Position numbers and translations under genes: made by a program. A stretch of 64,000 nt of DNA, from contig MFLL01000001.1 of NCBI GenBank assembly GCA_001781335.1, positions 25,626-89,625 of the forward strand, written 5' to 3'. This document shows positions 810 to 51,576 of the stretch, one piece after another (within the stretch, counting starts at the first letter, position 1; every line of letters starts with the position of its first letter). Origin of the DNA: Candidatus Kaiserbacteria bacterium RIFCSPHIGHO2_02_FULL_55_25 (GTDB lineage Bacteria; Patescibacteriota; Minisyncoccia; Phycocordibacterales; UBA2100). The notes below the pieces were generated by a model. It ran no database searches and had not been told where the DNA came from. It worked only from the letters and a program-made list of their open reading frames with translations.

Positions 810-1781
810 TTGTGTCATACTTTACCCTATATGGACAAACCTAAGGTAACTCCCAAAGATTTCGTGCTTTGGCTCGGTGCGATGGCCGCCCTCTACGGAG
901 GCGTGGTCTCATTTATCACGCTCGTGTTTGACTACATTAATCACGCGTTTCCTAATCCGGTCACAAATTACTACGTAGACCAGTCTTCAAGCATCAGCTA
1001 CGAGTCGGCTTCGCTCATTGTGCTCACGCCGGTCTTCCTCGTCTTGATGCGCGTCATCCGCCGCTCCATTGCGGCCGACCCGTCGCGCAACGAAATATGG
1101 GTGCGTCGCTGGGCACTGTTCCTGACGCTTTTTCTGGCGGGTGCGGCGATGGTCATCGACCTCATCGTCCTCCTCAACACCTTCCTCCAAGGCGAAGACT
1201 TGACCACCAGTTTCCTTCTCAAAGTTCTCACCGTGCTTCTCGTGACAGGGCTCGGGTTTATGCACTTCATGGCCGACCTTTGGGGGTACTGGGACCGTGA
1301 GAAAGCGCGGGCGCGAATGGTGAATTACGCGGTCGGAGTGCTTGTGCTCGTCACCATCATCGCCGGATTCTTCATCATCGGCACACCGCAACAGATGCGC
1401 GCACTAAAACAAGACGCTATCCGCGTGCAGGACCTGCAGAACATTCAGTGGCAGATTGTCAATTACTGGCAGCAAAAAGAGAAACTTCCGGCGGTTCTCG
1501 AGAATGTGAACGACCCGATAAGCAACAATCCCATTCCGAACGACCCGCAGACCGGTGAAGCGTACACGTACAAGATGACGGGTAAAATGTCTTTCCAGCT
1601 TTGCGCTACTTTCGCGACAGCGGGAGGAGGTCTGCAATATGGTTACGTCGAGCGCGCCGTTGAACCCATGGCCATAGACGGCAAACCTACACAAGACAAC
1701 TGGCAGCATGATGCCGGCGAGGTTTGCTTTGACCGCGCCATAGATCCTGAAAGATACCCCCCTTATTCGAAGACGCGGTAA
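810..1781 (+). CDS. Hypothetical integral membrane protein with about 5 TM helices and a soluble C-terminal domain.
   Basis: A 323-aa ORF with several hydrophobic helices. A good SD (AAGGGGG) ends 2 nt upstream of a TTG at 810; an alternative ATG is at 831. I did not recognise a family. Confidence 0.5.
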   Translation: MCHTLPYMDKPKVTPKDFVLWLGAMAALYGGVVSFITLVFDYINHAFPNPVTNYYVDQSSSISYESASLIVLTPVFLVLMRVIRRSIAADPSRNEIWVRRWALFLTLFLAGAAMVIDLIVLLNTFLQGEDLTTSFLLKVLTVLLVTGLGFMHFMADLWGYWDREKARARMVNYAVGVLVLVTIIAGFFIIGTPQQMRALKQDAIRVQDLQNIQWQIVNYWQQKEKLPAVLENVNDPISNNPIPNDPQTGEAYTYKMTGKMSFQLCATFATAGGGLQYGYVERAVEPMAIDGKPTQDNWQHDAGEVCFDRAIDPERYPPYSKTR

Positions 1782-1823: not shown

Positions 1824-1858
1824 AGCCCGATGGTGCGTGGTAATCTGGTACCAACCTC

Positions 1859-4800
1859 ATGAAAAACTACGACCATAAAGGCATAGAGAAGAAATGGCAG
1901 GATTTCTGGACCAAGAACAAGATTTACACGACCCCTGACTCCGCGCCAAAGAAAGATAATTTCTATCTCCTCGTCGAGTTCCCGTACCCCTCTGGCAACC
2001 TCCATGTCGGCCATTGGTACGCCTTTGCGGTGCCGGACATTTTGGCCCGTTATCACCGCATGCAGGGCAAAAATGTCCTCTATCCGATAGGGTTTGATGC
2101 ATTCGGACTCCCTGCGGAAAACGCCGCCATCAAGAACAAGCTCAACCCACGCAAATGGACGGAAGGGAACATCGCGTACATGAAGAAGCAGATTCAGTCG
2201 ATGGGCACATCGTTCGACTGGTCGCGCGAGGTCGTCACGTGCGACCCGTCGTACTACAAATGGACACAGTGGCTCTTCTTACAGCTCTACAAGAGAGGGC
2301 TCGTCTATCAGAAGGAGACGGCGGTCAATTGGTGCCCCAAGGATAAGACGGTGCTCGCCAATGAGCAGGTCGTCGACGGCAAGTGCGAGCGTTGTGATAC
2401 GGAAGTCGAGCAGCGGCAGATGCTCCAGTGGAATATCAAGATTACCGATTATGCCGACCGTCTCATAGAAGACCTCGAGCCGCTCAACTGGCCGGAGCAG
2501 ATAAAAGAATCGCAAAGGAATTGGATAGGCCGCTCAGAGGGTGCGGAGATTGATTTTCCGCTTGAAATGGGCAAAAAATACAAGTTCGTCTACCTGCACG
2601 GGTATAAGAGTAAGGCTGACAGACCCCGCAATCATTGGTACAGGGCAGGTTTGGAGGCGCTTGGACATGAGGTGATAATACCGGACTTGCCGAATTCAAA
2701 TAATCCAGTCGAAGAGGAGCAAGTAAAAATTGCGATTGAGGCTACGGATTACGACGAAAACACTGTTCTTATTGGGCACAGCTTGGGTGCTGTTGTTGCG
2801 ATGAAGGCGCTTCAAAAAATGAACAAAAAGATAGCACGGCTCGTGCTTATTGCGCCTACGATTGACCCTGCGTTTCCGGGCGCTGAAGAGAGACCGTTCC
2901 ACAAAACCTTTAAATGGGACATTGACTATGAATTGCTGAAGAAACTGGCGCCCAATCGGCTTCTTCTTTCTGATCTGAAAGAGCCTGAAGTCAGAATCAA
3001 TTACATTCGCCACCTCGCGCCGAAACTGGATGCGCAACTCGTTGAAACTCACGCAACTCAAGAACACTTTACGGGTGACAAAGAACCAGACGTTCTAATG
3101 TGGTTGCGACCGACAATACGCGTGTTCACGACCCGCTCCGACACGCTCTTCGGTGCAACATACCTCGTGCTTGCGCCCGAACACCAATTTATCAGGCAGT
3201 TCTACACAAGTCAGACTTCCTTGAATAAGGCAGAGGTCCAGCAATATGTCAATACTGCATTGAAGAGGAGCGACCTTGAACGCCAGACTGACCAGAAAAA
3301 TAAAACCGGGGTGAGGCTCGAAGGGGTAAGCGCAATGAATCCTGCTACGGGGGAGAAGGTACCGCTTTATGTGGCGGATTACGTACTCGGGCACTATGGC
3401 ACCGGTGCCATCATGGCCGTGCCCGCGCACGATGAACGCGACCACGAATTCGCGGAGAAGTTCGGGCTTCCCATCAGGGAAGTTGTCGAGCCCCTCGTCG
3501 TTGCCACGAGTGGCTTTGATGCTATTCATCAGGACGAACCGTTCCAGGAGCGCAACAGCATCATTGCCATCGTGAAGCACTGGTCGGAAGACAAATACAT
3601 TTGTCTCGCGTGGAAGCCGGCAGAATGGAAAGGCTTTGTCGTTGGTGGTATCGAAAAGGGTGAAGATGCCATCGCGGCCGGTGTACGCGAGATCGTCGAA
3701 GAGACCGGGTATCAAAAGCCCACGTTCATACGTCAGCTCGGCGGCACCATTCACGACAAGTTCTATCACACGATAAAAAGGGTCAACACGTTCGCTCACT
3801 TCACGCCGCTCTTGTTCCAGTTGGAAGACGGAACACATGTCGACATCGCAGATACCGAGAAAGATTTGCATGACGTACATTGGGTCGATGCCGATAAGGT
3901 CGCGAATTTTGTGAACAGTCGCGACATCAAGGTCGCTTGGGCGCGAGTGAGCGGTAAGAATATATATACAGGGGAGGGGATACTCAGCAATTCAGGAACA
4001 TTCAGCGGATTGATGACGGAAGAAGGCCGTAAGCAGATGGCCGAGAAATTCGGACGCACGAAGAAAATGTACAAGCTGCGTGATTGGATAGTCAGCCGTC
4101 AGCGGTATTGGGGCGTGCCGATTCCGATGATTCACTGCGAGAAATGCGGCATCGTACCGGTGCCCGACAAGGACTTGCCGGTGGAATTGCCGGAGGTAAA
4201 AGATTATTTGCCGGAGGGAAGCGGGAAGTCGCCGCTCGCAAAGGTCAAAAAATTTGTGGACACGGCGTGTCCTAAATGTGGGGGGAAGGCGAAACGGGAA
4301 ACTGACACGCTCGATACATTTGTAGATTCTTCGTGGTACTTCCTGCGCTATACCGACCCCAAGAATCCCAAGGCCTTTGCATCAAAAGCCAAGCAGGCAA
4401 AATGGATGCCTATCAATCTCTACAGCGGGGGAGCGGAGCACACGACGATGCACTTGCTCTACAGCCGCTTCTGGCACAAGGCGCTCTACGACATGGGGCT
4501 TGTTGCCGACGCGGAGCCATACACCCGCCGCATGAACAGAAGCATTATTCTCGGTCCCGACGGACAAAAGATGAGTAAGTCGCACGGCAACGTAATCGAC
4601 CCCGACGAGGTGGTGGCGCGACTCGGTGCCGACACGGTACGCATGTATTTGGCCTTCGTAGGGCCGTATAACGAGGTTTCCAGCTTCCCATGGAATCCCG
4701 ACGGTGTGGTGGGTGTGAGGCGTTTTCTGGAGCGCGTATGGCGCCTGCAGGAGAAAGTCGGCACAGAGGATGCCGGCGCACTCTCCTCGGCTCTGCATAA

Positions 4801-6773: not shown

Positions 6774-7685
6774 TTAGAGCCATTTTTTGTGTTTAAAGAA
6801 GACAAACATGGCAATGCCGACAGACATGACCGCGCCGACGATTATCCAGAAATCATGCGGAGTTCCGATTATAGGATTGTCTCTCGCGGCGACGCCGAGA
6901 ATTGCGACGAGTAGTGCAAGAGGGAATGTGAATAGCGCCATGATGGTCAGCATGCGCATTGTTTCGTTTTGCTTGGTGGTGAGAAGGGAATTGTTGGTTT
7001 CGCGAAGCTCATGGAGAAATTCGGTACTGCGCATGATGTGATTGTGTACGCGGTAGTACTCGTTGGAAAGTGTGCGCAGGAAGGGGCGGAACCCCTCGCC
7101 CCAAAAAACAACACCGCCTTCTTCGAGGTCGCGCAGTACTTCGCGGTGTGGTTCGATGGTCTGGCGCAAATTCAACAGGTCGCGCGAGGTGCGCGAAATA
7201 GCGGCGACCATATGCACCTCGTCTCCCGAAAACACGTGGTCCTCGACAAGCTTGAGGTCGTGACGGACGTATTCGAGCTCATGTTCGACGGCGCGGTACA
7301 ACTTCTTGAGCATGTACAAAAATAGATATCCTGCGTGCTCGCCGATAGTGCTTTTGTCGAGAACTGCGTTGACCTCGAACACCTTGGAAAATTTGTGCAG
7401 CGGGTCGACGGTGTCGTAGCGGGTCGTGATGATGAAATTTTGACCGACAATGAAATCCACCTCCTGCTCACGTGTCTTGTGTGAATGGCGCAGGGCAGGG
7501 AAGTGGAGTACCGCATATACATAATTGCGGCGGAATTCGGCACGTGGCTTGCTGGCGGGCAGGAGGAGCTCTTCGGCGATATGCGGCTCAATGTCAAACT
7601 CTGCGGCGACGCGCACGACCTCGTCGCGCGTGGGCGATTCCATGTCAATCCATGTGATACCCTCGTGCTCGAAACGGGTTTGCAT
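6774..7685 (-). CDS. CorA-family divalent cation transporter. The conserved YGMNF motif reads LGVAA (GMN replaced by GVA).
   Basis: A cytoplasmic N-domain is followed by two C-terminal TM helices and a basic KHKKWL tail that aligns to the T. maritima CorA C-terminus. The ORF runs to 7766, but a minus-strand TATAAT at 7698-7693 sits 7 nt upstream of the ATG at 7685, which suggests a leaderless start. Confidence 0.72.
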   Translation of the reverse strand: MQTRFEHEGITWIDMESPTRDEVVRVAAEFDIEPHIAEELLLPASKPRAEFRRNYVYAVLHFPALRHSHKTREQEVDFIVGQNFIITTRYDTVDPLHKFSKVFEVNAVLDKSTIGEHAGYLFLYMLKKLYRAVEHELEYVRHDLKLVEDHVFSGDEVHMVAAISRTSRDLLNLRQTIEPHREVLRDLEEGGVVFWGEGFRPFLRTLSNEYYRVHNHIMRSTEFLHELRETNNSLLTTKQNETMRMLTIMALFTFPLALLVAILGVAARDNPIIGTPHDFWIIVGAVMSVGIAMFVFFKHKKWL

Positions 7686-7692
7686 TGCAAGC

Positions 7693-7719
7693 ATTATATC
7701 AGTTTCGGAGTGATATAAT
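7693..7719. promoter_or_regulatory. Divergent pair of -10 boxes. TATAAT on the minus strand (7698-7693) serves corA, and TATAAT on the plus strand (7714-7719) sits 9 nt before the ctpA ATG. Both starts look leaderless.
   Basis: Consensus TATAAT hexamers lie 7-9 nt upstream of the start codons with no SD. The same geometry recurs at at least seven other genes in the window. Confidence 0.35.
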
Positions 7720-7728
7720 CCTCTGGAT

Positions 7729-8973
7729 ATGGAAAACGGTCGTGGCATATCGCTTCTCAATGCCATCGGTATCGCGATTGCTGTTGCGGTCCTCGCTTTT
7801 GCAGGCGGGTCCGCATACGGAAGTTACCGTGCCGTCGCGTCGGGAATTGCGGGCGGTGATATACCTGCGAATGTGGATTTTTCGCCCGTCTGGCGGGCAT
7901 GGCATGTTCTCGATGAGAAGTTTGTGCCGGCAGCCGTCTCGACCTCGACTCCTATCGCCACCAGCACGGCACAGGCCGAACAGGACCGTGTCTGGGGCAT
8001 GATAAGCGGCCTCGCGGCGTCGCTGAACGACCCGTACACATTCTTTTTGCCGCCGGTAGAGAACAAGCAATTCGGGGATGATATGAGCGGGCAGTTTGAG
8101 GGCGTGGGTATGGAAATCGCGGTGAAGAGCGAGGTACTCACCGTAGTCACGCCGCTCAAAGGCACGCCTGCCGAAAAGGCCGGTATTAAGAGCGGAGACC
8201 ATATTCTGAAGATTGACGGTGTCGGTACACAGGGTATGGACGTGGATGCTGCTATCAAAAAAATCCGCGGACCCAAGGGTACGCAGGTCACTCTTACCAT
8301 GCTTCGCCAAGGTTGGGCGGAAACGCGGGAGGTAAAAGTGACGCGCGACGTCATCAATGTCCCCATAATCACAACAACCGCTCGCAAAGACGGCATCTAT
8401 GTCATCGCGCTCTCAAGTTTTACCGCAAATTCGCCCAATCTTTTTCGAGACGCCTTGCGGGATTTTGTAGAATCCGGGAATACCAAGCTCGTGCTCGACT
8501 TGCGCGGTAATCCGGGAGGATACTTGGACGCGGCTGTGGACATGGCGAGCTGGTTTTTGCCTAGCGGCAGTGTCGTCACGACGGAAGATTATGCCGGGCA
8601 CGAGAGCAATATCGTTCATCGCTCGAGCGGCTACGATATATTCAACGAGAATCTGAAAATGGTCGTCCTTGTCAATCAGGGGTCCGCCTCGGCTTCTGAA
8701 ATCCTTGCCGACGCCTTGCGCCATTACAAGGTCGCGAAAATCGTGGGTACCAATACCTTCGGCAAAGGCGTCGTGCAGGAACTCGTGTCCATCACTCCGG
8801 AAACCTCGCTCAAGGTCACGGTGGCCCGCTGGCTCGGCCCCGACGGCACCCAAATACCACTCACCGGCCTGATTCCCGACGTGATGGCCACGACAAGCGA
8901 CGAGGCCATCAAAGCCGAAAAAGACCCGCAGCTGGACAAGGCGGTCGAGCTACTGTTGTTGAAAGCGCAATAA
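7729..8973 (+). CDS. ctpA: Carboxyl-terminal processing protease of the S41 family, with an N-terminal membrane anchor and a PDZ domain.
   Basis: Diagnostic motifs include FEGVGMEI, a PDZ region, LDLRGNPGGYL and GSASASEILA. Confidence 0.88.
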   Translation: MENGRGISLLNAIGIAIAVAVLAFAGGSAYGSYRAVASGIAGGDIPANVDFSPVWRAWHVLDEKFVPAAVSTSTPIATSTAQAEQDRVWGMISGLAASLNDPYTFFLPPVENKQFGDDMSGQFEGVGMEIAVKSEVLTVVTPLKGTPAEKAGIKSGDHILKIDGVGTQGMDVDAAIKKIRGPKGTQVTLTMLRQGWAETREVKVTRDVINVPIITTTARKDGIYVIALSSFTANSPNLFRDALRDFVESGNTKLVLDLRGNPGGYLDAAVDMASWFLPSGSVVTTEDYAGHESNIVHRSSGYDIFNENLKMVVLVNQGSASASEILADALRHYKVAKIVGTNTFGKGVVQELVSITPETSLKVTVARWLGPDGTQIPLTGLIPDVMATTSDEAIKAEKDPQLDKAVELLLLKAQ

Positions 8974-9542: not shown

Positions 9543-10289
9543 TATAGAGGCGACGCCTCGATATACGTGAATTTTACAGCGGAAGGTCGGCATAATATTC
9601 GGCGGCCCCGATAAGTGTGTCCCGTAGCGCAGGGCGTTTTTCGAACATGGACATGGCATCAGCGTCGAGGATCGAGTTCTCCGGCCTCTTTGCCCCTTCG
9701 TAATCCGGCAGGCTACTGTATCGATATGTTTTGAGCTTTTGTTCCAATGATCCTATGTTCCTTACATATCCCGATTTCCATTCTCGCTCGAATAGTTCAG
9801 CAGGATTGAGATGAATGTATTGCACGACATACTGCAGGTACGCATCGTCATCGATGCGTTTGGAACGAAATGGTTTGATAAATACGTTTCCAACATGCTG
9901 TCGCTTCACATTGAAGTACATACTGAAGCTCGTTCCAAGTTTTTGCATGAATGTACTGATTCCTCCGTCGGTAATCTCTTGCAGTAGCAGATGAAAGTGG
10001 TTGGGCATGAGGCAGTACGCACCAATGGAGACCAATGGATTGCCACGCGGCAGGGAAAGAAGGCGTTCGTGCGACGGGCTGTACATAGCTCCACGGCGAA
10101 TTGTACGATTGCCATTGCAAATGTAGAGCGCCTGCAAAAAACGTTCGTAATCCTGCTCGGTCTCGAACACCACATTTTTGTCGATACTGCGGGTATAGCA
10201 GTGGTACCACTCATTGAAAGCGAATTCTTCTCTGCGATATGCCATTTGGGTATAGTATCACCCAATATATAGAGGCGTCGCCTTGATAT
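9543..10289. mobile_element. IS200/IS605-like or RAYT-like element 1, bounded by inverted GC-stem hairpins at 9543-9564 and 10268-10289.
   Basis: The hairpins tatagaggcgacgcctcgatat and tatagaggcgtcgccttgatat are mutual reverse complements and each is near-palindromic. They enclose a single HUH Y1 gene. Confidence 0.7.
9574..10245 (-). CDS. tnpA: HUH-superfamily Y1 transposase-like protein (IS200/IS605 TnpA or RAYT-like), paralog 1.
   Basis: It carries the YCLMPNHFHLLL (HuH) motif and a downstream catalytic-Tyr region YVVQYIHLNP. It is paralogous to the ORFs at 36615-37319 and 56689-57381. Confidence 0.8.
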   Translation of the reverse strand: MAYRREEFAFNEWYHCYTRSIDKNVVFETEQDYERFLQALYICNGNRTIRRGAMYSPSHERLLSLPRGNPLVSIGAYCLMPNHFHLLLQEITDGGISTFMQKLGTSFSMYFNVKRQHVGNVFIKPFRSKRIDDDAYLQYVVQYIHLNPAELFEREWKSGYVRNIGSLEQKLKTYRYSSLPDYEGAKRPENSILDADAMSMFEKRPALRDTLIGAAEYYADLPL

Positions 10290-10325
10290 GTGAGGATTTC
10301 CTGTGTTTTGATACAATGCTCAATG

Positions 10326-10769
10326 ATGAAAGTAATACTGTTGAAAGATGTGAAGGGGGTGGGGCAGAGGGGAAAGATTGTCGAGGTCAAGGACGGATAC
10401 GCGTATAATTTCCTGATTCCGCACAAAGCGGCCGAGCAGGCGACGCCCGAGAAAATTGCGGCTCACGACGCCAAAGAGAAACAGGAAGCCACTCTCCATG
10501 AACAGCAAAATACGGCACTCAAAATGGCGGTACAAAGTCTCAACGGGAAGACACTCACCGTGTTTGCACGCGCAACCGAGAAAGGCGGGCTTTTTAAGTC
10601 ATTAACGACATCCGATGTCGTTAAGGCAATTCTAGATCAGCTCAATATTCAGATACCAGAGACTACCGTCGAGCTCGAGAAGCCCATCAAGCAGACAGGC
10701 GAACACGCTATAAAGATAAAAACCGCGGATGTCGCGGCCTCTATCGTACTTTCTGTACAATCGGTTTAG
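10326..10769 (+). CDS. rplI: 50S ribosomal protein L9.
   Basis: The product begins MKVILLKDVKGVGQRGKIVEVKDGYAYNFLIP. A -10 box TACAAT at 10312-10317 sits immediately upstream. ATGs are present at 10323 and 10326. Confidence 0.9.
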   Translation: MKVILLKDVKGVGQRGKIVEVKDGYAYNFLIPHKAAEQATPEKIAAHDAKEKQEATLHEQQNTALKMAVQSLNGKTLTVFARATEKGGLFKSLTTSDVVKAILDQLNIQIPETTVELEKPIKQTGEHAIKIKTADVAASIVLSVQSV

Positions 10770-11049: not shown

Positions 11050-11108
11050 AAAGATTAGGGACTAGGGAATAGGTGCTAGGGACTAGGAAATACAGTAAAA
11101 TTCGATGC

Positions 11109-11474
11109 ATGAGGAATATACAGGAATACTGGCAGAAAATCAAGGGTTTTCTGGACGCCGGAATAGGGGATTGGGGGCTCGTAGCCATTATATTCCTCAC
11201 AGCCCTCGGTTCCTTCGGTCTGGGGCGCCTTTCGGCCCTTGTAGAGGCTCGTCCGCCTGTACCGCTGACGATGAGTCCGGAGAAAAGCTCTCCTGCCGCC
11301 CTTGCGATGGGTGGGCTCGTGGTGGCGGCGTGGTCGGGGACGGTCTACTACTATCCATGGTGCAGTGGGGCAGGGAATATCGCCCTGCAGAATCAGCGCT
11401 GGTTTACCGACGAAAAAAGCGCTCAAGCCGCCGGCTACCGGCCCGCAAAGAACTGCAAAGGACTTGCGCAGTAA
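11109..11474 (+). CDS. Small membrane-anchored hypothetical protein with a Cys-containing C-terminal motif.
   Basis: It has one N-terminal TM helix. The C-terminus YYYPWCSGAGNIALQNQRWF...AGYRPAKNCKG resembles small metal-binding extracytoplasmic domains, but I did not recognise the family with confidence. Confidence 0.45.
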   Translation: MRNIQEYWQKIKGFLDAGIGDWGLVAIIFLTALGSFGLGRLSALVEARPPVPLTMSPEKSSPAALAMGGLVVAAWSGTVYYYPWCSGAGNIALQNQRWFTDEKSAQAAGYRPAKNCKGLAQ

Positions 11475-12087: not shown

Positions 12088-12184
12088 GCACTATAAAGTG
12101 CTTTCGGGCTCCTCGGCTCGGCAATCCCAAAGCTAACTGTCCTTTGGCATTGCGCTCGCCCTACGTCGCCCGTAAAATAGCCCA

Positions 12185-12778
12185 ATGATAGTACTAGACG
12201 TTGAAGCAACGGGGACAGAGCCGGCCAAACACTCCATAGTGAGTATCGGCGCACTCGACTTGGCGAACCCCGCCAACCGTTTCTATATGGAATGCCGCGC
12301 GTGGGACGGTGCGCACATTATGGACGAGGCGCTCGAGGTCAACGGCTTCAGCAGGGAACAGGTGACAGACCAGTCAAAGCCAACCGAGGCCGACCTTACG
12401 CACGCATTCAAAGCTTGGAGCGAAGGTGTGGAAGAGCGGACATTTGCCGGACAGAATGTTTCGTTCGACCGCGATTTCCTCCGCGCAGCCGCCGAGCGGG
12501 CAGGGCACACAGACTGGCCGTTTGCTCACCGCACGCTCGATACGCATACGATGTGTTTTATGCACATGGTAGAGCGGGGGATTCAGCCGCCTGTTGTTCA
12601 CAAACGCTCTGCCCTGAATCTCGACGCCGTTCTCAACTACTGCGGCATTCCCGAAGAACCGTCTCCGCACAACGCGCTTACCGGCGCGCTCTGTCACGCA
12701 GAGGTGATTGCGCGCCTCTTGTACGGACGCAAACTTTTGCCTGAATTTGCGCAATTCGAGATTCCTTGGAAAAAGTGA
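12185..12778 (+). CDS. DEDDh-family 3'-5' exonuclease (DnaQ-like, standalone).
   Basis: Exo I is VLDVEATG, Exo II is FDRDFL, and Exo III is HNALTGALCHAEV. A TAAAAT box at 12173-12178 sits 6 nt before the ATG. Confidence 0.75.
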   Translation: MIVLDVEATGTEPAKHSIVSIGALDLANPANRFYMECRAWDGAHIMDEALEVNGFSREQVTDQSKPTEADLTHAFKAWSEGVEERTFAGQNVSFDRDFLRAAAERAGHTDWPFAHRTLDTHTMCFMHMVERGIQPPVVHKRSALNLDAVLNYCGIPEEPSPHNALTGALCHAEVIARLLYGRKLLPEFAQFEIPWKK

Positions 12779-13217
12779 GTCCCCCATCAAAAATAGGGAA
12801 GAGGGCGCTCCGATAATGTGGTGCATTTTTTGCATATTAAAAAGACGCTACGCGCAGCCGGAAAATATCTGCGAGACCGGAAGCGGAGGGGAGAGCGAGA
12901 TTCTGCATCCGGCGCCTCTTCATGGTATTGACCGGCTCGTGGTCTAATCTAGGTTATCCTAACGTCGCACAATATATCTTTTCCGACGTAAAACCCTAGA
13001 TAAAGCCACAGCAAATAAGGCGCCGTGCTCCGGCTCTGCATCAACCTGCGTCTTCCTCTGCTCCCATGTCTCCTGCAGGCGCATAGAGGCTCAAAATGCC
13101 CTCGGTAGGCATTTCTGCGAATCGGGCTTCCCCGGAACAATAAATGAAGCATGTTTTGGCATTTGACCCAAATACAAAGAAAATTGAATTCTGTGAAAAG
13201 GGGCATATACTGCATAA

Positions 13218-13625
13218 ATGCGCAATCCCTCAGAAATACAGGCCTTTGATGGCAATGATGAAATAATTCATACTCAAGAATATTTGATTTTTGGTAACGC
13301 GCTGACCATTAGGTTTTTTAACTGGAAATTTGAATTTGAGTTTATAAATGACCCGAATAACACGGTGCGCTACGATTCTTCGAAAATTGAAGAAAATGGA
13401 GTGGTTATCGGTGCACATTTTCGCGTATTTAATTTTTTAAAGAACGTTGGCGCTGCGACGCTCAGTAAGGGTCGTATTGTCGAGGACATCGTCTATCACG
13501 GAGAGCGACGTGATCCGAATGCTGTCAAAGACATTTACTTTGCTCTCAAGACAACGGGGAGATATGGGGAGAACGGTCCCGCAGCAATTACTGTCACGTT
13601 TTATTCTAGGGTGCGCGCTACATAA
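13218..13625 (+). CDS. Hypothetical protein in the AT-rich islet.
   Basis: A 135-aa ORF in a visibly lower-GC stretch. No family recognised. Confidence 0.3.
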   Translation: MRNPSEIQAFDGNDEIIHTQEYLIFGNALTIRFFNWKFEFEFINDPNNTVRYDSSKIEENGVVIGAHFRVFNFLKNVGAATLSKGRIVEDIVYHGERRDPNAVKDIYFALKTTGRYGENGPAAITVTFYSRVRAT

Positions 13626-13958: not shown

Positions 13959-14125
13959 AGTCAGAGCTTTTTCTTTGGTATACTTAGTTTTTAGCCGGCA
14001 CTGAACACGCCGTTCTGTGCCGGACCCCAGTTCGACAACCTGTTTGCCCCGATACCTAACTTCGACAATTTTATTGTCGCAGAATGGTCTTCGGGGCTGT
14101 TCTTTTGAGGGTCTATAATCCACTT

Positions 14126-14782
14126 ATGTACCGAGAACGTCTCAAGGCGCTACTCACTCCCGCTGAGAGGAAGATTTTTGTGCGGCTGACTTCCCCGCAG
14201 AAAATTCAAAATTTTCTCGATACCCTTCCCATCAACTTCGAACTAAAGGGCGAGACGTACATGTCGCCGCGACGAGTGTTGCGCGCAAAAACTGCGCACT
14301 GTTTCGAAGGTGCGCTCTTTGCTGCGGCGGTGCTCGCGTATCACGCCCATATGCCGCTCCTGATGGACATTCAAACGATTCCAGCCGATGAGGACCACGT
14401 TATAGCGCTGTTCCGGCAAAACGGCCGCTGGGGTTCGATAAGCAAGACGAATCACACAATATTGCGGTATCGCGACCCCGTGTATGCCTCGCCGCGCGAA
14501 CTTGCGATGTCGTATTTCCACGAGTACATCATGAATAGCGGGCGACGCTCCATGCTCGCCTTCTCCGCCCCGTTTGATTTGAGTCGATATGCACCCGAGC
14601 GTTGGGTCACTGCGCCGGAAGAGCTTGACTGGCTTGTCGAAGCGCTCGACAACTCCCGCCACTTCCCTATCGCGCCGAAGAAAAATCTGCGGCTGATCCG
14701 CAAGGCTACGCCGGTTGAACGACAGGCGCTCAACATTACCGAATGGCATCCGCGCGGCACAAAAACACGTCACGGAAAGTAG
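14126..14782 (+). CDS. Hypothetical protein, possibly a transglutaminase-like cysteine peptidase-fold protein.
   Basis: The order Cys (TAHCFEGALF) ... His (DEDHVIALF) ... Asp matches the transglutaminase-like core. TATAAT at 14114-14119 sits 6 nt before the ATG, which suggests a leaderless start. Confidence 0.45.
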   Translation: MYRERLKALLTPAERKIFVRLTSPQKIQNFLDTLPINFELKGETYMSPRRVLRAKTAHCFEGALFAAAVLAYHAHMPLLMDIQTIPADEDHVIALFRQNGRWGSISKTNHTILRYRDPVYASPRELAMSYFHEYIMNSGRRSMLAFSAPFDLSRYAPERWVTAPEELDWLVEALDNSRHFPIAPKKNLRLIRKATPVERQALNITEWHPRGTKTRHGK

Positions 14783-17403: not shown

Positions 17404-18542
17404 ACGGGTTCGTGTTGGAGCGCGACGTCGAGCAGAACGGTGGCAATTTTGCGTGCAGATTGCGGACGCGCGAACTTCTTCGCAGCTTGCGACATTTCCG
17501 CGACTCGCGCGGGATCTTTGATGATTCTCTCTATTTCCGCAAAAAGGACGTGTGGCGTGAGGTTGTGCTGCTCAATGACCACCGCTCCTCCCGCGCGCGC
17601 ATAGGAAAACGCGTTGGAGGTCTGGTCGTGAGAAATGTCTTCGGGAATCGGTACAAGTATCGCGGGAGTACCCCACGTGGCGAGCTCAAATATAGTGCCG
17701 CTCCCGGCGCGGGCAACCACCAGATTAGCGACACCAGCGGCCATGCGCAAAGCAAGCGCGTTCAGAAGCCCGAACGGCCGGTACCGCTCTTCGTGTGAAG
17801 TGTCGCGTAGCACGAGCTTGGCGAGCTTATCGACTTCATCAATATTCGCATTCCCCGCCTGATGAATTACGTTGTATGAGGAAACGAGTTGCGGAAGCGC
17901 GTCGATGATGGCGTTGTTGATAACCTGTGCGCCCTGCGAACCGCCCATGACGAGTACTGTCGGGACACTCGTATCAAGATGCAAAAACTCGTGACCGCCC
18001 TCTTTTGCGGGAGTCTCTATCTCCTTGCGTATAGGATGGCCGATGTGCGCGATGCGGTCGCGAATGGCGGCAGGAAAACGCGCGGCCGCTTCCGGATGCG
18101 CGACACCTATCCAACGGGCAAATTTTGACGACCACAGCGACACCCTGCCCGGAGTCGCGTCTGCGTCATAAATAACAACCGGAATACGCAGCAGTTTCGC
18201 CGCATACAGGCTGGGGAAAGCTGCAAATCCGCCCGTGGAGAATATTACGTCGGGATACAGGCGGTACAGCTGGACAATGGAAGTGCAGATGCCCCAAGCC
18301 GTCGCAAAGAGCCCCAGAACGTTGAAAATGCTGGAGTAGCGGCGAAGGCGCCCGGCCGCACCCGGAATGTAGGCTATTTCGTGCTCAAGAAGCGCGGTGC
18401 GCTCAAACGGCTCGGGGCCGATGTAATAGAGCTCCGGTTCGATAAGTGTGCGTTCCCGCGTAAGCTCTTCGAGTGCCTCGGCTACGGCAATAAGAGGATA
18501 GAAATGTCCTCCGGTTCCCCCGCCAAGCAAAACGATACGCAT
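17400..18542 (-). CDS. murG: Undecaprenyldiphospho-muramoylpentapeptide beta-N-acetylglucosaminyltransferase.
   Basis: The product begins MRIVLLGGGTGGHFYPLIAVAEAL and has a GT28 C-terminal domain. Confidence 0.92.
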   Translation of the reverse strand: MRIVLLGGGTGGHFYPLIAVAEALEELTRERTLIEPELYYIGPEPFERTALLEHEIAYIPGAAGRLRRYSSIFNVLGLFATAWGICTSIVQLYRLYPDVIFSTGGFAAFPSLYAAKLLRIPVVIYDADATPGRVSLWSSKFARWIGVAHPEAAARFPAAIRDRIAHIGHPIRKEIETPAKEGGHEFLHLDTSVPTVLVMGGSQGAQVINNAIIDALPQLVSSYNVIHQAGNANIDEVDKLAKLVLRDTSHEERYRPFGLLNALALRMAAGVANLVVARAGSGTIFELATWGTPAILVPIPEDISHDQTSNAFSYARAGGAVVIEQHNLTPHVLFAEIERIIKDPARVAEMSQAAKKFARPQSARKIATVLLDVALQHEPV

Positions 18543-18894
18543 TGCGCCATTTTATCACATCGGGTAGCCGTCGTTGACTGGAGCGTATAAAAATCAAAGG
18601 TTGACCTTGGGGTTATCGTTGGTCGACCCATTGTCAGCAGGATAGGGGCTTCACTATCCGTGAAGAATTTTTGCGCCGTCCCGCATTTCCCAATACCAAT
18701 CCTTGGTATCGCCATGACGGACGAATTTCACGACTTCGCCGCGGCGGCGCGCTTCGGTCACTTTGTGCGGGATGTGACTTGCGCCAGCACCAAAGTCTGC
18801 AACGTCGGACTCGGGCATCATAGCCCCCCTGTCACCGCCACCACCGATTGCGCTGGCCAAAGCAGCAAAAGCTACAAGGCTTACCCCTCGGGAT

Positions 18895-19821: not shown

Positions 19822-20919
19822 TCAGCTACGCCGGCGCGAAATACTGAGAAGCAGGCCGGCGCTGCCGAGCGAGGCGAGCATCGCGCTCCCGCCCTGACTG
19901 ATAAATGTGAGCGGTATACCGGTGACAGGTGCGACGCCGAGCATTGAAGCGATGTTTATAAACGCCTCTATAACAAGATAGGTCGATATTCCCACGGCAA
20001 GGAGCGAGCCGAACAAATCCGGCGCGCGGGCCGCGATGCTGTACCCGCGCAATGCGAACGCAAGGAAAAGCGCCACAATAAAGACCGAGCCGACAAAACC
20101 AAGCTCCTCTGCGGCGACCGCGAAAATGGAGTCACCCATCGGCTCCGGAAGATACGTAAACTTCTGTATCCCCTGCCCGAATCCGCGTCCGAACACTCCG
20201 CCCGAACCCACTGCAATAAGCGATTGCTTGATTTGATACGACTGATCGTGCTGGCCCTGCGAGGGATAGATGAATGTGACAAGCCGCTCGCGTACGTAGT
20301 CTTTTTTGTAAGCGACAAGCGCGAGCGCGACAACACCGACGCATATCACTGCCCCGATTTGTTTCCACGATGCGCCGGCGGCAAAAAATATCGCCAAGAC
20401 CGATATGCAGATGATACCGAGTGTTCCGATGTCGGGCTGCAGAACGAGCGCGAGCGCCGGCAATGCAAGCAGAGCCGCAAAGCCACCGAATCCGTACATG
20501 AACGAAGAGACTTTTGTTTTTATTGCGGCGAAATACGAAGCGGCAAGCAGAATGCTCGCGATTTTAAGAAGTTCCGACGGTTGGAACGAAAATCCGGCTA
20601 GGAGAATCCAGCGGCGGGCACCTCCGTGCCCAAACCCGATTTGTGGTATAAAAACGGCAAGAGTGGCGATAATCGCCAATGCATATATGTACGGCGCAAA
20701 GCGGCGCCACCGATGGTAATCCACCGCGGCACCAGTCATGAGCGCAATCGCACCCAAACCCACGCCAAGAACAAGATGGCTGAAGACCACCGACGACATA
20801 TTGGTCGCGCCGCGTGCCAAAAGTCCGAAAGCGGCGGAGGCGAATATCATGCAACCGCCGACAAGCAATACTAGTATCAAAAGCGCCAACGGTTTGTCGA
20901 CGGCGGCGCGTTTCTTCAT
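19822..20919 (-). CDS. ftsW: SEDS-family peptidoglycan glycosyltransferase (FtsW/RodA).
   Basis: A polytopic membrane protein with the FtsW/RodA signature, positioned between murG and mraY. Confidence 0.88.
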   Translation of the reverse strand: MKKRAAVDKPLALLILVLLVGGCMIFASAAFGLLARGATNMSSVVFSHLVLGVGLGAIALMTGAAVDYHRWRRFAPYIYALAIIATLAVFIPQIGFGHGGARRWILLAGFSFQPSELLKIASILLAASYFAAIKTKVSSFMYGFGGFAALLALPALALVLQPDIGTLGIICISVLAIFFAAGASWKQIGAVICVGVVALALVAYKKDYVRERLVTFIYPSQGQHDQSYQIKQSLIAVGSGGVFGRGFGQGIQKFTYLPEPMGDSIFAVAAEELGFVGSVFIVALFLAFALRGYSIAARAPDLFGSLLAVGISTYLVIEAFINIASMLGVAPVTGIPLTFISQGGSAMLASLGSAGLLLSISRRRS

Positions 20920-20923
20920 GGGT

Positions 20924-22054
20924 CTATGGTATCACTGTCGCGGGAGCCTCGTAGAGCATGGTTTGCTGGGGACTCACCGCGTACGGTGTTACGGGCAGGG
21001 CGGCGAGCGCGATAATCACCCCGACAAAGGCGAACACAACGGAAAGCACCCAGTAACGCATGACCACCTTGGGGCCCGGCCACCCGATGGCCTCAAAATG
21101 ATGATGCAGAGGCGCGACTTGCAGAACCTTCCTGCCGAAAAAACGTTTGGAAATGACCTGAACTACATTTGAGAGTACCGTAGCGACCAGCAACATGCCG
21201 ATGACCGGCAGTACCGCGACACCCACGCCGCCGCCGATGCTGTCGGTCATAAAGGCGACTGCAGCAAGGCTCAAGGTGAGCCCCATGGTGCCGGTGTCCG
21301 ACATGTAGAAACGCGCGGGAGGAATGTTGAACCAGAGGAATGCCAGCAATCCACCGACGATGGCCGCGCAAAATGCCGCGAGGTCGAGCTGTTGTTGAAC
21401 GAACGCAATGATGGTGTATGAGGCGAAAATGGACGCAAAGACGCCTCCGGAGAGCCCGTCTATCCCGTCGATAACGCCGGATGCGTAGAGCGCCAACGAA
21501 AGAAGAACAAAGCACGGGACAATCAGGATGCCGAGATACAACGGGGAGGCAAATGGGATGCTCAAGCTCACCACGCCGAGTTTCGCCCAAAACCACCAGC
21601 CGGTAAGGCCTGAAAGTGCGATGACGATAAGAATGCGGTGACGCAGCAAGAGGCCGCCGCCGCGCGGTTGAATCGCAAGGATGTCGTCGACGAGACCGAC
21701 CAAAGAGCCGGCCAAAAGGGCCCCGAGCGGTATCCATGTTTGGCTACGGCTCAGGAAGTCGAGCTGGAGCGAGGCGGTATTCGGCATCAGCCGTGCGAGC
21801 GCGGCGATGCCAAAAACGGTGAGCAGGGTACTTCCCCACACCACAATGCCGCCCATGCGCGGCGCGCGAACTTCGTGCTCTTTGTGAAGGTCGTTGAAAA
21901 TGTGCGCCGCTTCGCCGTCAAGAGCTATTTTCCCCGGAGCCTTTTTCCATGCTTTGTGTTTGTATAAATAATGCGTGAGGACCGGTGTCGCTGCCATACC
22001 GAAAATGAACGACACGGTGGCAGGAATAAGGATACGGATAATTTCGTAGAGCAT
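20924..22054 (-). CDS. mraY: Phospho-N-acetylmuramoyl-pentapeptide transferase.
   Basis: A polytopic membrane protein with MraY D/N-rich loops and the expected context. Confidence 0.92.
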   Translation of the reverse strand: MLYEIIRILIPATVSFIFGMAATPVLTHYLYKHKAWKKAPGKIALDGEAAHIFNDLHKEHEVRAPRMGGIVVWGSTLLTVFGIAALARLMPNTASLQLDFLSRSQTWIPLGALLAGSLVGLVDDILAIQPRGGGLLLRHRILIVIALSGLTGWWFWAKLGVVSLSIPFASPLYLGILIVPCFVLLSLALYASGVIDGIDGLSGGVFASIFASYTIIAFVQQQLDLAAFCAAIVGGLLAFLWFNIPPARFYMSDTGTMGLTLSLAAVAFMTDSIGGGVGVAVLPVIGMLLVATVLSNVVQVISKRFFGRKVLQVAPLHHHFEAIGWPGPKVVMRYWVLSVVFAFVGVIIALAALPVTPYAVSPQQTMLYEAPATVIP

Positions 22055-28911: not shown

Positions 28912-30492
28912 TCACTGTGTCGGGAATTCCAGTATAAAGCGGGAGCCCTTGTCTTTGCCGTCTGATTCGGCCCAAATGCGGCCGCCCATCGCCTCTATAA
29001 ATGTCTTCGCGAGATATAGGCCGACGCCTGTGCCGAGGAGGTTCACTTTTTGCGCATCGGCACGCGAGAATTTCTTGAAGAGATGCGGGAGTGTCTCGGG
29101 CGCAATGCCGACGCCGGTGTCTGAAATCGTCAAGCGGACCGCAACCCCATGCCGCTCGACGGCGACGGTGACGCCCCCGTGCACGGTGTATTTGAGAGAG
29201 TTATCAATCAAGTTGCCTATTACCTCTTTCACCTTGCCCTCGTCCGCCTTGATGGTGTACTGATGAGATTCGTCGATTTTCTTTTCGAGAGTCAGGCCAC
29301 GCAGCTGCGCGTGCGGAACGTAGCCGTCCGCAATAGACGAAGCGGCTGCGGCGAGGTCGAAAGGAGCGCTGTTGTACGATATCTGCCCGAGCTCCATCTT
29401 GGACTTGCTCAAAAATTGGGCGATGAGATTCAACACGTCGTTCCCCCCGATGAGAATCTTCTGCGCGACCGCTTTTACCTCGGGCGAAGCATGGTCGACA
29501 GTGCCGTCGACGATAAGCGATGCATACCCGCGCATGGCGGTAATCGGATTGCGGATTTCATGCGACGCAAACGTCATAAATTCCGATTTTTCCTCACTCA
29601 GCCGCTGAATTTCCTCCCGTGATCTGACCTCTGTACGAACACTGCGCACCAAGAGTGACCCGATCGCCAAGCTAAGAACAAAAAGCAAACCGTTGAACAT
29701 CTGCTCCGTTTGATTTGCAGCAAGTATCGTGCGAAGGAAAGTAGTAATCCAAAGCAGACCGATAAGAAGTTCGGTGATCATCACTTTTGCATTGAATAGC
29801 TGAAGCCTGAATACTGAATACATGACCGCGATTGCAATGCACGTCGTAAAAAGCGGTCCCGTCCAAATGTACTTTGCATTATTGAGAAACGGCGATGGCA
29901 GAATGAGGTTGTAAAAGATTCCGGCCGCTCCAGCGATGGTGACACTTCCGACGATGACGAGGAGTTGAGTGCGCTCAATACCGGATGCTACAAGATATTT
30001 TGCCCACAGTCGCGCGATTCCACCAACAAAAAGCGCGCCAAAAAGCAAGGCGAATGTGAGGTATCCCTGCAGGTCGAGTTGTACGCCACGGCCCCACTCA
30101 TATTGAACGATTGCCTGAGTTAAGAAAGATGGATCGACTAAAAGAACCACCGAAAAGAGGAGTACCGCGAGGGTTGGTATCCATACTGCAGACCGCGGAA
30201 ACGCCTCCGAACGAGGAAACGAGTATGAGAACAAATAGTACGTGACCCCAATTACGAGCGCTGCGATGTACGATGCTTTTGTACTGTAGAGCGATGCGAT
30301 GTACGAATTCGTTACTTGGGATCCTATAAGCGCTAAAGCCCAGATGGAGAGCGCCGCAAGAAATATCGCGAACAGCGCATTCTCGCGACGCCGAACATTT
30401 CCGCGAAGTAGCACAATCATTGAGCCGGCGTTGAATAGCGCGGTCATGAGTAGGATGCTGTTTGTTATGTTCAACATGATGAGGTAGCGCAA
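28912..30492 (-). CDS. Sensor histidine kinase with a polytopic (about 8 TM) N-terminal domain. No response regulator lies adjacent.
   Basis: The H-box is FASHEIRNPITAM and there is a C-terminal HATPase_c domain (DTGVGIAPE...GLGLYL). Confidence 0.85.
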   Translation of the reverse strand: MRYLIMLNITNSILLMTALFNAGSMIVLLRGNVRRRENALFAIFLAALSIWALALIGSQVTNSYIASLYSTKASYIAALVIGVTYYLFSYSFPRSEAFPRSAVWIPTLAVLLFSVVLLVDPSFLTQAIVQYEWGRGVQLDLQGYLTFALLFGALFVGGIARLWAKYLVASGIERTQLLVIVGSVTIAGAAGIFYNLILPSPFLNNAKYIWTGPLFTTCIAIAVMYSVFRLQLFNAKVMITELLIGLLWITTFLRTILAANQTEQMFNGLLFVLSLAIGSLLVRSVRTEVRSREEIQRLSEEKSEFMTFASHEIRNPITAMRGYASLIVDGTVDHASPEVKAVAQKILIGGNDVLNLIAQFLSKSKMELGQISYNSAPFDLAAAASSIADGYVPHAQLRGLTLEKKIDESHQYTIKADEGKVKEVIGNLIDNSLKYTVHGGVTVAVERHGVAVRLTISDTGVGIAPETLPHLFKKFSRADAQKVNLLGTGVGLYLAKTFIEAMGGRIWAESDGKDKGSRFILEFPTQ

Positions 30493-30624
30493 TTATACCC
30501 CGCACTATTAGGGCAATTTTGACCTTATCGGCACTGTAGAATTGACAGACGGCGGGTTTAGTTACAATATGCTGATAGGCTACTTGACAATGAACCATTG
30601 CGGGGAATCCGCAGGAGGACACAA

Positions 30625-32201: not shown

Positions 32202-33281
32202 TTAGAGTCCTTCCCCGCGAAGCTTTTCAATAAGCTCGCGTGCCTTTGCGGAAAGTTTTTTCGGAAACTGAATGTCTATCCGCACCATAAGGTCGCCGCG
32301 GGTATTTCTTCCATGAGGAACACCCTTGCCGCGTATGCGAACGACTTCCCCGTGTGTGACTCCCGCCGGAACATCAATTGTTTCGTCACCATCGAGCGTA
32401 CGTACGTGGTATTCCCCGCCAAGAAGCGCATCCGAGAGCTTGATGGGCAGTGAAATCGTGAGATTGTTGCCGTCACGTGTGAAATCGGAATCCTTCTTGA
32501 CGTGCAATTTGACGTACAAATCCCCCGCCGAGCCGCCCGCAGCCGCTTCGCCACGCCCGGGCATGCGTATCATCTCGCCGTCGGATACTCCGGCCGGAAC
32601 GACTATCTGAATTTCCTCCTGTCTCCGCGCGACACCTTCGCCGCGGCATGTCTCGCACGGACTCTCCGGCACTTGGCCGCGGCCATGGCACTTCGGGCAC
32701 TGTCGCGTGGTGGTAAACGAGCCGAACAAAGAATTGCGCGTCTCTCGCATCTCACCCTTGCCGTTGCAGCCGGTGCAGGCCGTCATCTTGGTCCCCTTCT
32801 TGGCACCGGAACCGCCGCAGGTATCGCACATACCCACTTTGGCGATAAGAACGTTGCGTTCGGTGCCAAAAATCGACTCGCGAAACGCGAGCTCAATATC
32901 TATTGAAATGTCCCGCCCTCTGCGTTGACCGGCCGAAAAGCCGCCACCGCCGAAAAATTCACCGAAGATATCGCCGAGGTCAAACTCCTGAAAATTGCCC
33001 TGAAACCCCTGAAAATTAGAGAAATCGAACCCGCCGAAGCCCTGTCCGTGCGGAGAGCCGCCTGCAAATGTCTTGCCGTAGGTGTCGTACTCCGCGCGCT
33101 TCTTTTTGTCGGACAATACCGAATAGGCCTCGCTCACTTCTTTGAATTTCGTCTCGTCCCCGCCCTTCTTGTCGGGATGGTATTTGTGCGCTAATTTTCT
33201 GAACGCGGATTTTATCTCATCTTCATTGGCGCCCTTCTTCACACCCAAAATATCGTAGTAGTTTTTCATGGTCGGAATCAT
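32202..33281 (-). CDS. dnaJ: Chaperone DnaJ.
   Basis: A J-domain (YYDILGV...HPDK), a G/F region, and four CxxCxGxG zinc-finger repeats. Confidence 0.93.
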
Positions 33282-33307
33282 TATATGTGCAGAAAAATTA
33301 TCCGCAA

Positions 33308-34150: not shown

Positions 34151-34622
34151 TCACGCACTTTATCATGTACTTATCGCCGTTGATTTTGCGAAAGAAAAGA
34201 GAGATAAATCGAAGCCGTCATATTGATCGCTTCTGGCAAAATCAAAAGAGCGCCCGAATACGAGCGCCCTCTTTCCGACAGAGATCCGGGTTGATTACTT
34301 GGTCGGTGCAGTCACCGATGTTGGGAACAGAAATTTTACTAGCAACAACGCCACCAGCATCGTACCCGAACTGATCAAGGCGTCGTCGGGACCGCGCCAC
34401 AGGATTGGGGCCGAACCGAACAATGCGACCGTCTAAATCATCGCGGCAGGGATCGCGCAGTAGGTGTGCGGATATTTTGCTTTCGTCCGCATAGCCCAGA
34501 TCGTGAACAACGCCGCGAATGGAATCAGTAATCCGCGGGGAATTGCATCAAGCAGAACCTGCGTCCACATTTTGTGGCCCTCCGTTGAGCGACCTACATT
34601 GTAGCCTCAATCTATACTTATG

Positions 34623-43913: not shown

Positions 43914-43945
43914 AAAAGTATATCACGCAGATATCCCGCCTTTAT

Positions 43946-51567: not shown

Positions 51568-51576
51568 ACCCCCACT

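Follow-up and report, generated by a model that had tools for sequence, protein, structure and literature searches.

The question of how start codons are selected in a bacterium whose genes are almost devoid of Shine–Dalgarno (SD) motifs is raised by a 64-kb stretch of DNA (the window; 53–57% G+C) from Candidatus Kaiserbacteria bacterium RIFCSPHIGHO2_02_FULL_55_25 (contig MFLL01000001.1), an uncultivated groundwater bacterium of the candidate phyla radiation (CPR). A first-pass annotation of the window had noted a TAnAAT hexamer 5–9 nucleotides (nt) ahead of the ATG of many genes, without an SD sequence, and had proposed that leaderless initiation is common in this genome. Computational comparison with related loci supports that proposal, through the spacing of the hexamer, the promoter signals around it, its dependence on gene context, its conservation and the scarcity of SD motifs. 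It is highly probable, in our assessment, that the hexamers are σ70-type −10 elements that start transcription at or near the ATG, and that the messenger RNAs (mRNAs) have no leader or a very short one. Where transcription starts, and how ribosomes are recruited, we infer from what is known of σ70 promoters and of the leaderless mRNAs of E. coli, Deinococcus and mycobacteria.

Leaderless initiation, believed to be an ancient mechanism, has been amply described in Actinobacteria, Deinococcus-Thermus and archaea. In the scheme of GeneMarkS-2, bacterial leaderless transcription defines "group C", to which about 90% of actinobacterial and 97% of Deinococcus-Thermus genomes belong (Lomsadze et al., 2018; PMC6028130); a Pribnow box lies about 6–8 nt before the first genes of operons in this group, and 25–50% of operons are leaderless (PMC6028130). 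Within the CPR, only 48% of Parcubacteria had a detectable anti-SD motif (Tsurumaki et al., 2022; PMC9297842), and Ca. Campbellbacteria, Ca. Wolfebacteria, SR1 and Peregrinibacteria are scarce in SD sequences and are without the CCUCC core of 16S ribosomal RNA (rRNA) (PMC10783764).

Sequences and definitions

The genome directly examined comprised about 74 kb, namely the window and a further 10 kb to its right. Open reading frames (ORFs) were called by codon usage and started at their first in-frame ATG, a rule that is blind to the motif. The starts of the window were curated with third-party gene calls (ENA/JGI), Pfam profile coordinates and orthologues; the third-party calls were taken from protein-identical Rifle aquifer metagenome contigs, whose GenBank counterpart is MFKZ01000008.1 (assembly GCA_001781195.1). 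The spacer is the number of nt between the end of the hexamer and the ATG. A gene was taken as a likely transcription-unit head (unit head) if its neighbour was divergent or the upstream gap was at least 30 nt. Fifty kb of E. coli K-12, processed with the identical script, served as the control genome.

The nearest species-representative relatives are metagenome-assembled genomes (MAGs) labelled Candidatus Kaiserbacteria, Parcubacteria or Patescibacteria, with CtpA identities of 53–87%. One set of relatives consisted of 80 loci around ctpA (853 genes); the other, independent of it, comprised 80 metagenome loci around dnaK (793 genes). Because the related loci are in part orthologous, their genes do not count as wholly independent, and the taxon labels of some of these MAGs are automated and possibly wrong (e.g., "uncultured Candidatus Saccharibacteria").

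A −10-like box at a preferred distance from the start codon

The spacing between box and start codon, which the first-pass annotation had proposed to compute genome-wide, was computed for the window and for both sets of relatives and showed a sharp peak at 6 nt. With the first-ATG rule, TAnnnT occurred at spacer 6 in 14 of the 62 ORFs of the window and at spacers 6–9 in 22 of them. At the same spacer it preceded only 1 of 300 internal in-frame ATGs and, with both strands counted, 1.7% of all ATGs (n = 2056; excess over internal ATGs, Fisher p = 6e-11; binomial p = 2e-12), and 0 of 41 starts in the E. coli control. Third-party gene calls placed the box at spacer 6 in 10/46 genes and at spacers 5–10 in 17/46. 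After curation, 29 of the 67 genes of the window (~43%) carried TAnnnT at spacers 5–10, distributed as 15 at 6 nt, 8 at 7, 2 at 8, 3 at 9 and 1 at 10 (Table 1).

The relatives gave the same picture. Around ctpA, the box lay at spacer 6 in 175 of 853 genes vs. 26 of 4053 internal ATGs (p = 7e-110), and 147 further genes had it at spacer 7–9; internal ATGs show 0.3–1.2% per position. Around dnaK it lay at spacer 6 in 109 of 793 genes. The commonest hexamers were TATAAT, TAAAAT, TATACT and TACAAT. The peak also emerged without gene calls: an ATG follows 6–9 nt downstream of 10 of the 13 TGnTAnA[AC]T motifs in the window and of 83 of the 185 in the relatives, where other offsets account for ~1–2% each. 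The triplet at spacer 6 is by far most commonly ATG; TTG is rare (5/185), and GTG does not rank with the commonest triplets.

All eight hexamers cited in the first-pass annotation (those of corA, ctpA, rplI, the exonuclease, the 14126 gene, grpE, the mazF-like gene and dnaB) were found where it had placed them, 5–9 nt ahead of an ATG (Table 1). The gene identities agree with Pfam, and no GGAG, GAGG or AGGA lies 3–13 nt ahead of any of the eight starts. The rplI box is present at 5 nt from ATG 10323, as claimed, and its spacing is ambiguous, being 8 nt at the canonical ATG 10326. The hexamer itself held up and the consensus TAnAAT did not, TAnnnT being the better description (grpE has TATACT); that many genes carry it was right, and the eight examples understated the extent. 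Five more window genes (leuS, a histidine kinase gene, infA, rpsK and recR) have a box at 11–14 nt, which would imply leaders of 5–8 nt, still too short for an SD sequence.

Promoter signals around the box

The 175 spacer-6 sites of the ctpA-locus relatives were aligned, with the A of the ATG as +1. Several positions that had not been selected for were found to be biased. Upstream of the hexamer, an extended −10 element (TGn) appears, with G at −14 in 61% of sites and T at −15 in 42%; within the hexamer, A occurs at −9 in 52% and at −8 in 64%. Positions −35 to −33 are T (51%), T (52%) and G or T (74%), which points to a weak −35 hexamer of the TTG type, 17 nt from the −10 element. A pyrimidine (C or T) stands at −1 in 66%. 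In the window, TGn accompanies 14 of the 29 boxes vs. 5.3% in the background. To judge by their motifs, the window boxes are −10 or extended −10 promoters of the σ70 type.

Gene context and conservation

The box follows the organization of transcription units. In the window it is present at 25 of 44 likely unit heads (~57%) vs. 5 of 24 close-packed genes, and at none of the six genes that overlap the preceding gene. Among the relatives, 40–53% of genes with a divergent neighbour or a gap of at least 30 nt have the box, as do 30% of those with a gap of 0–29 nt and 4 of 67 (6%) of those overlapping the preceding gene. A general ribosome-binding motif would not be depleted at overlapping genes in this way.

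The distance from box to start is kept in orthologues from relatives of 53–87% identity while the sequence of the spacer changes. A box at spacer 6–9 was found for the exonuclease in 45/56 orthologues, for the 14126 gene in 26/32, for the Ada-Zn-like gene in 46/56, for leuS in 29/41, for murG in 27/31 (21 of them at 6) and for the DUF5671 gene in 24/40, all of which start with ATG. The ctpA orthologues have it in 48 of 80, many as TGcGATAAT at 6–7 nt, and those of corA have a [TG]AnnnT box at this distance in 48 of 51. The dnaK-locus set agrees (grpE 50/69, dnaJ 39/66, tyrS 15/18, alaS 14/19, the 381-aa gene 13/18 and the 467-aa gene 16/34). By comparison, the operon-internal controls M23 (4/39) and gltX (7/37) rarely carry the box, and the genes of the ribosomal-protein operons together with infA are at background (rpsI 4/57, infA 4/40). 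The predicted leaderless architecture is conserved across related Kaiserbacteria and Parcubacteria, a class-level clade.

The divergent corA/ctpA region

The arrangement is most compact between corA and ctpA, whose ATGs (7685 and 7729) are 43 bp apart. The back-to-back boxes reported within 27 bp are indeed there, on the minus strand at 7693–7698 and on the plus strand at 7714–7719, and together span 7693–7719. The predicted promoters are divergent and overlap, each −10 box occupying the −35 region of the other; because these elements are interdigitated, simultaneous occupancy of both promoters is probably precluded.

A third-party call starts corA at ATG 7694, which overlaps the TATAAT; this start was rejected. 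In 46/46 divergent orthologous loci the alignment begins at the Met of 7685, the box lies 6–7 nt from the equivalent Met in all 46, and the start at 7685 was retained because the orthologue alignments begin there and the box stands at a conserved distance from it. The GenBank record also starts corA at 7685, and position 2 of the Pfam CorA profile corresponds to residue 8 of that start.

Start codons

Reassigned start codons would have destroyed the spacing; the starts were checked against orthologues as well as Pfam coordinates and independent gene calls, and the last two support them. The N-termini of the exonuclease, DnaJ, DnaB, FtsW and CorA fit their Pfam profiles within a few residues: RNase_T position 1 falls on residue 2 of the exonuclease, DnaJ position 1 on residue 3 of DnaJ, and position 2 of the N-terminal DnaB profile on residue 9. 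For rplI, position 1 of the L9_N profile is residue 1 of ATG 10326, which the third-party call also chooses; the adjacent ATG 10323 is a possible start as well, and the leader would be at most 3 nt with either. The mazF-like gene has no other in-frame Met before residue 55.

Two further candidate starts were set aside. For the 14126 gene, the third-party call begins at ATG 14084 (with TATTGT at 6 nt); orthologues favour 14126, and the call is probably a mis-start. The gene at 810 had been cited as starting with an SD sequence; TTG 810 was rejected in favour of ATG 831, which is supported by the third-party call, by ATG in 40/40 orthologues, by the DUF5671 profile and by a TACTTT at 7 nt.

Shine–Dalgarno usage and genes without a box

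SD 4-mers at spacer 4–10 number 0.18 per gene in the window (about twice background) and 0.08 in the relatives (background), compared with 0.68 in E. coli. In 519 genes of the relatives that have no box, GGAG, GAGG, AGGA and GGAGG showed no positional peak; the dnaK-locus set has a small SD bump at spacer 5–7. The excess in the window comes from four genes, those at 27538 (AGGAGGAG) and GTG 28252 (GGGAG), the fabH-like gene at 30625 (AGGAGG) and the Cys-rich ORF at 57996 (GGGGAGG). Three GGAGG sites in the window compare with ~0.7 expected on a rough estimate, a marginal excess. Of the two SD-led genes named in the first-pass annotation, the SD of 57996 is real (5 nt from the start) and that of 810 is doubtful, ATG 831 being the more likely start of that gene.

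Some of these SD-bearing genes stand apart in other ways. The Cys-rich 135-aa ORF (57589–57996, minus strand) has no neighbour with a Pfam annotation and escaped the codon-usage gene caller, and the fabH-like gene has one orthologue in 80 loci. The block at 26753–28854 (minus strand) comprises an unknown gene of 261 aa, a GT-like gene and a second paralogue of the RNase_T exonuclease, with low codon-usage scores and SD-like motifs at 2/3 genes; it may have been acquired horizontally from an SD-using bacterium.

A search for a new SD-like motif in the genes without a box found only stop-codon-containing and A/T-rich 4-mers to be enriched, and the regions upstream of these genes tend to be rich in A and poor in G. 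No rRNA was found when the 3′ end of 16S rRNA was sought in the window and in the extra 10 kb on the right, and the 160 related loci contained no conserved 16S motifs. Transfer RNA (tRNA) genes and RNAs recognizable by Rfam are absent from the 64-kb window.

Several side observations concern the same genes. In the relatives, leadered or internal genes without a box have a T directly before the ATG in 52% of cases vs. ~27% expected. The leaders of rpsI, rplQ, rpmA, rpsK, rpsM and recR have 0–8% G in their last 25 nt and resemble short tandem repeats, with neither an SD sequence nor a nearby −10 box (Table 1); similar repeats occur in intergenic regions of the relatives (loci L043, L061 and L035). 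The A/C-rich stretches ahead of rpsK (41548–41632) and rpsM (42033–42104) form the 3′ arm of a 20–22-bp hairpin reaching to within a few nt of the ATG, and these hairpins may be a ribosomal-protein operator or a processing site. Between infA and rpsM lies rpmJ (ribosomal protein L36; 37 aa; 42128–42241, minus strand), which is missed by ORF lists cut at 60 aa or more.

A model for initiation

The usual distance from a −10 box to +1 is 6 nt. On the reading that we favour, half of the promoters would be of the extended −10 type (TGnTAnnnT), with little or no −35 element, and RNA polymerase would start on the A of the ATG when the spacer is 6–7 nt, or 1–4 nt before it when the spacer is 8–10 nt. 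The resulting mRNAs would be leaderless or nearly so and would leave no room for an SD sequence; since none is possible on such mRNAs, the 5′-terminal AUG would be recognized and bound directly by a ribosome that carries initiator tRNA, in the manner known from mycobacteria, Deinococcus and archaea. The remaining genes would be translationally coupled or close-packed, or would have G-poor leaders without an SD sequence, apart from three or four genes with a good SD motif.

Several points weigh against this reading. Chance alone would yield about 3 of the 29 window boxes, and some have weak sequences (TACTTT, TATGCT). The box of dnaK is not conserved (spacer 6–9 in only 21 of 80 orthologues), which makes the window dnaK box doubtful. 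Matches to the −35 consensus in the window are at chance level (at least 4/6 in 2 of 29 modules vs. 10.6% at random), and a standard −35/−10 consensus scan finds no promoter at corA/ctpA, where such a two-hexamer scan is uninformative because the predicted promoters are of the extended −10 type without a −35 element. The +1 itself is assigned from the canonical −10-to-+1 distance, and 6 of the 29 modules have spacers of 8–10 nt, for which the implied leaders are 2–4 nt and not zero. Finally, five close-packed genes carry their box inside the upstream gene and may owe part or all of their transcription to promoters further upstream.

Alternative explanations

In one alternative the boxes are real but secondary promoters, most transcripts arising from upstream promoters or by read-through with ordinary leaders and leaderless mRNAs being minor products. 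At ftsW, mazF, udg, mgtC and rpmJ the box lies inside the 3′ end of the upstream gene on the same strand, with a gap of less than 30 nt, the compact genome makes read-through plausible, and the −35 elements are weak. However, 25 of the 29 modules lie at divergent or at least 30-nt gaps, where there is no upstream gene on the same strand to supply read-through. The 43 bp between the ATGs of corA and ctpA leave no space for a further promoter and leader, and leadered versions of the transcripts would still be without an SD sequence. We regard this alternative as unlikely.

Still less probable is that TAnnnT is an A/T-rich, non-SD ribosome-binding or enhancer element within a longer 5′ untranslated region (UTR), as in Bacteroidetes ("group B"). 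The scarcity of SD motifs would suit such an element, related CPR lineages are reported to be without the CCUCC anti-SD (PMC10783764, PMC9297842), and in other SD-poor phyla A/T-rich motifs upstream of genes have a role in translation (PMC6028130). Yet a translational element should occur at operon-internal genes, and the box is seen at 6% of overlapping genes vs. 40–53% of unit heads and is absent from the genes of ribosomal-protein operons; moreover, TGn at −15/−14 and TTG at −35 with a 17-nt spacer have no part in ribosome binding, and the consensus of the hexamer is that of the Pribnow box. That the pattern is one of chance hexamers and of starts chosen to fit them deserves hardly any credence. 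TAnnnT is a loose motif, matched at ~0.8% of positions, about 3 chance matches are expected among the 29 modules, and the starts of corA (7694 vs. 7685), rplI (10323 vs. 10326) and the 14126 gene (14084 vs. 14126) are ambiguous; but the sharp peak appears alike under the first-ATG rule, with the third-party calls and in the test that used no gene calls, the internal-ATG and E. coli controls are flat, and orthologues conserve the pattern, so that the statistics refute this explanation. Start of transcription at or near the ATG is the reading that we carry forward.

Other features of the window

The modules of box, spacer and ATG are collected in Table 1. Three Y1_Tnp paralogues (IS200-like or REP-associated tyrosine transposase-like) occur within the 64 kb, at 9574–10245 (minus), 36615–37319 (minus) and 56689–57381 (plus), each with its own −10 box near the start. 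The mazF/PemK-like gene (50482–50868, minus strand) has no recognizable antitoxin gene upstream, the end of udg being 18 nt away; it seems to be a toxin gene standing alone, under a promoter of its own of the putative leaderless type. The gene divergent from dnaB (60651–61673, minus strand) encodes a 340-aa protein with an N-terminal Sigma70_r4 domain and HARE-HTH, which is unusual for a sigma-related protein. The leuS gene (1859–5236, plus strand) encodes an 1125-aa synthetase with internal Pfam matches to Ser_hydrolase/Abhydrolase_6 and NUDIX, which suggests that this leucyl-tRNA synthetase carries inserted domains. Two perfect palindromes, at 18895–18934 (20 + 20 nt, no loop) and at 52754–52791 (18 + 18 nt, 2-nt loop), could be terminators or operators; the latter lies between the PD-(D/E)XK nuclease and ogt-like genes and has TTATAAT on both arms.

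Table 1. Predicted −10 modules (box through ATG), short-leader variants and G-poor leaders of the window.
Feature	Coordinates	Strand	Box	Spacer (nt)	ATG	Remarks
DUF5671 gene	818..833	+	TACTTT	7	831	weak box
leuS	1838..1861	+	TGgTAATCT	12	1859	short-leader variant; expected leader ~5–6 nt, no SD
corA	7683..7701	-	TGaTATAAT	7	7685	
ctpA (PDZ + S41 protease)	7711..7731	+	TGaTATAAT	9	7729	expected 5′ UTR ~2–3 nt
Y1_Tnp-like gene a	10243..10260	-	TGaTACTAT	6	10245	
rplI	10309..10328	+	TGaTACAAT	5 or 8	10323 or 10326	hexamer 10312–10317
Ada-Zn-like gene	11096..11111	+	TAAAAT	7	11109	
RNase_T exonuclease	12173..12187	+	TAAAAT	6	12185	
Hypothetical 135-aa gene	13206..13220	+	TATACT	6	13218	
Hypothetical 218-aa gene (14126 gene)	14114..14128	+	TATAAT	6	14126	
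murG	18540..18557	-	TGaTAAAAT	6	18542	
ftsW	20917..20934	-	TGaTACCAT	6	20919	predicted promoter inside mraY 3′ end
Histidine kinase	30475..30497	-	TATAAT	14	30477	short-leader variant
dnaJ	33267..33285	-	TATAAT	10	33269	expected leader ~3–4 nt
APH-family kinase	34148..34165	-	TGaTAAAGT	6	34150	
dnaK	36489..36504	-	TAAAAT	7	36491	doubtful
grpE	37917..37934	-	TGaTATACT	6	37919	
Hypothetical 467-aa gene	43905..43925	-	TGaTATACT	9	43907	also TACTTT at 7 nt
Hypothetical 381-aa gene	45089..45104	-	TATACT	7	45091	
NUDIX gene	47587..47607	-	TGcTACACT	9	47589	divergent from M16 peptidase gene
M16 peptidase	47643..47660	+	TACTAT	9	47658	
mazF/PemK-like toxin	50866..50884	-	TGtTACAAT	7	50868	
Uracil-DNA glycosylase	51565..51579	-	TAAAGT	6	51567	
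Ogt DNA-binding-domain gene	52693..52707	-	TATAAT	6	52695	
PD-(D/E)XK nuclease	53586..53600	-	TATACT	6	53588	same start in third-party call
mgtC	54148..54162	-	TATAAT	6	54150	
Hypothetical 135-aa gene	55398..55413	-	TACAAT	7	55400	
mnmA	56588..56605	-	TGaTATAGT	6	56590	
Y1_Tnp-like gene c	56672..56691	+	TGtTATGCT	8	56689	weak box
Hypothetical 472-aa gene	60502..60519	-	TGtTAAAAT	6	60504	
dnaB	61846..61863	+	TGcTAGAAT	6	61861	
G-poor leaders	38504-38552, 39274-39320, 11050-11108, 41536-41645, 42027-42127, 63256-63332					

Relation to known systems and significance

The pattern resembles group C in the Pribnow-like box that lies about 6–8 nt before the starts of unit heads and is lacking at operon-internal genes, and the leaderless share predicted here, ~57% of unit heads, is at or above the 25–50% of operons given for that group. 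It differs in that the other genes of group C use SD sites, whereas SD motifs here are at or near background, and the CPR/Patescibacteria are not among the lineages named in PMC6028130. Leaderless transcriptomes have been mapped in Mycobacterium tuberculosis, M. smegmatis and Deinococcus deserti (Cortes, 2013; Shell, 2015; de Groot, 2014; as summarized in PMC6028130), and that summary gives 167 of 262 mapped genes of D. deserti as leaderless. These cases share with the window a TANNNT about 6–7 nt before the start, and the leaderless share of D. deserti, as given there, is similar to that predicted here. As they are described in the same summary, they were verified by differential RNA sequencing (dRNA-seq), proteomics or ribosome profiling, whereas the present case is sequence-based; the organisms also differ from Kaiserbacteria in G+C content and phylum. 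Mycobacteria also use GTG at leaderless starts, whereas ATG is almost exclusive at the predicted leaderless starts here.

The SD-scarce lineages of the CPR belong to the same superphylum and the same class-level neighbourhood and share the near absence of upstream SD motifs; neither PMC10783764 nor PMC9297842 reports promoter-adjacent starts or leaderless mRNAs in them. In Haloferax volcanii and other haloarchaea, by the account given in PMC3986360, mRNAs are mostly leaderless and the leadered ones are without an SD sequence. On that account the haloarchaea offer a likeness to the window, where most unit heads are predicted to be leaderless and the leadered genes are without an SD sequence, but their promoters are archaeal (TATA/BRE about 26 nt upstream), as is their initiation apparatus. 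Within the literature searched, no paper describes leaderless mRNAs in CPR, Patescibacteria, Parcubacteria or Saccharibacteria. The mechanism is familiar; what appears, within the range of that search, to be unreported is that it should predominate in a CPR lineage and be combined with so few SD motifs.

A broader proposition, on which we are evenly divided, is that Kaiserbacteria and allied Parcubacteria have almost wholly abandoned SD-dependent initiation, with unit heads leaderless and downstream genes either coupled or preceded by G-poor, unstructured leaders; this would be the mRNA-side counterpart of the reported loss of the 16S anti-SD and of ribosome reduction in this part of the CPR. 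If so, a large bacterial clade would resemble haloarchaea, and not typical bacteria, in translation initiation. As the main mode in a CPR lineage, leaderless initiation would explain how start codons are selected in organisms reported to be without an anti-SD sequence, and would add a data point on the evolution of translation initiation alongside ribosome reduction. It would also improve the annotation of start codons in thousands of CPR MAGs (in the window, third-party calls and GenBank disagree on corA), and would offer native promoter designs (TGnTAnAAT + 6 nt + ATG) for the emerging genetics of Patescibacteria.

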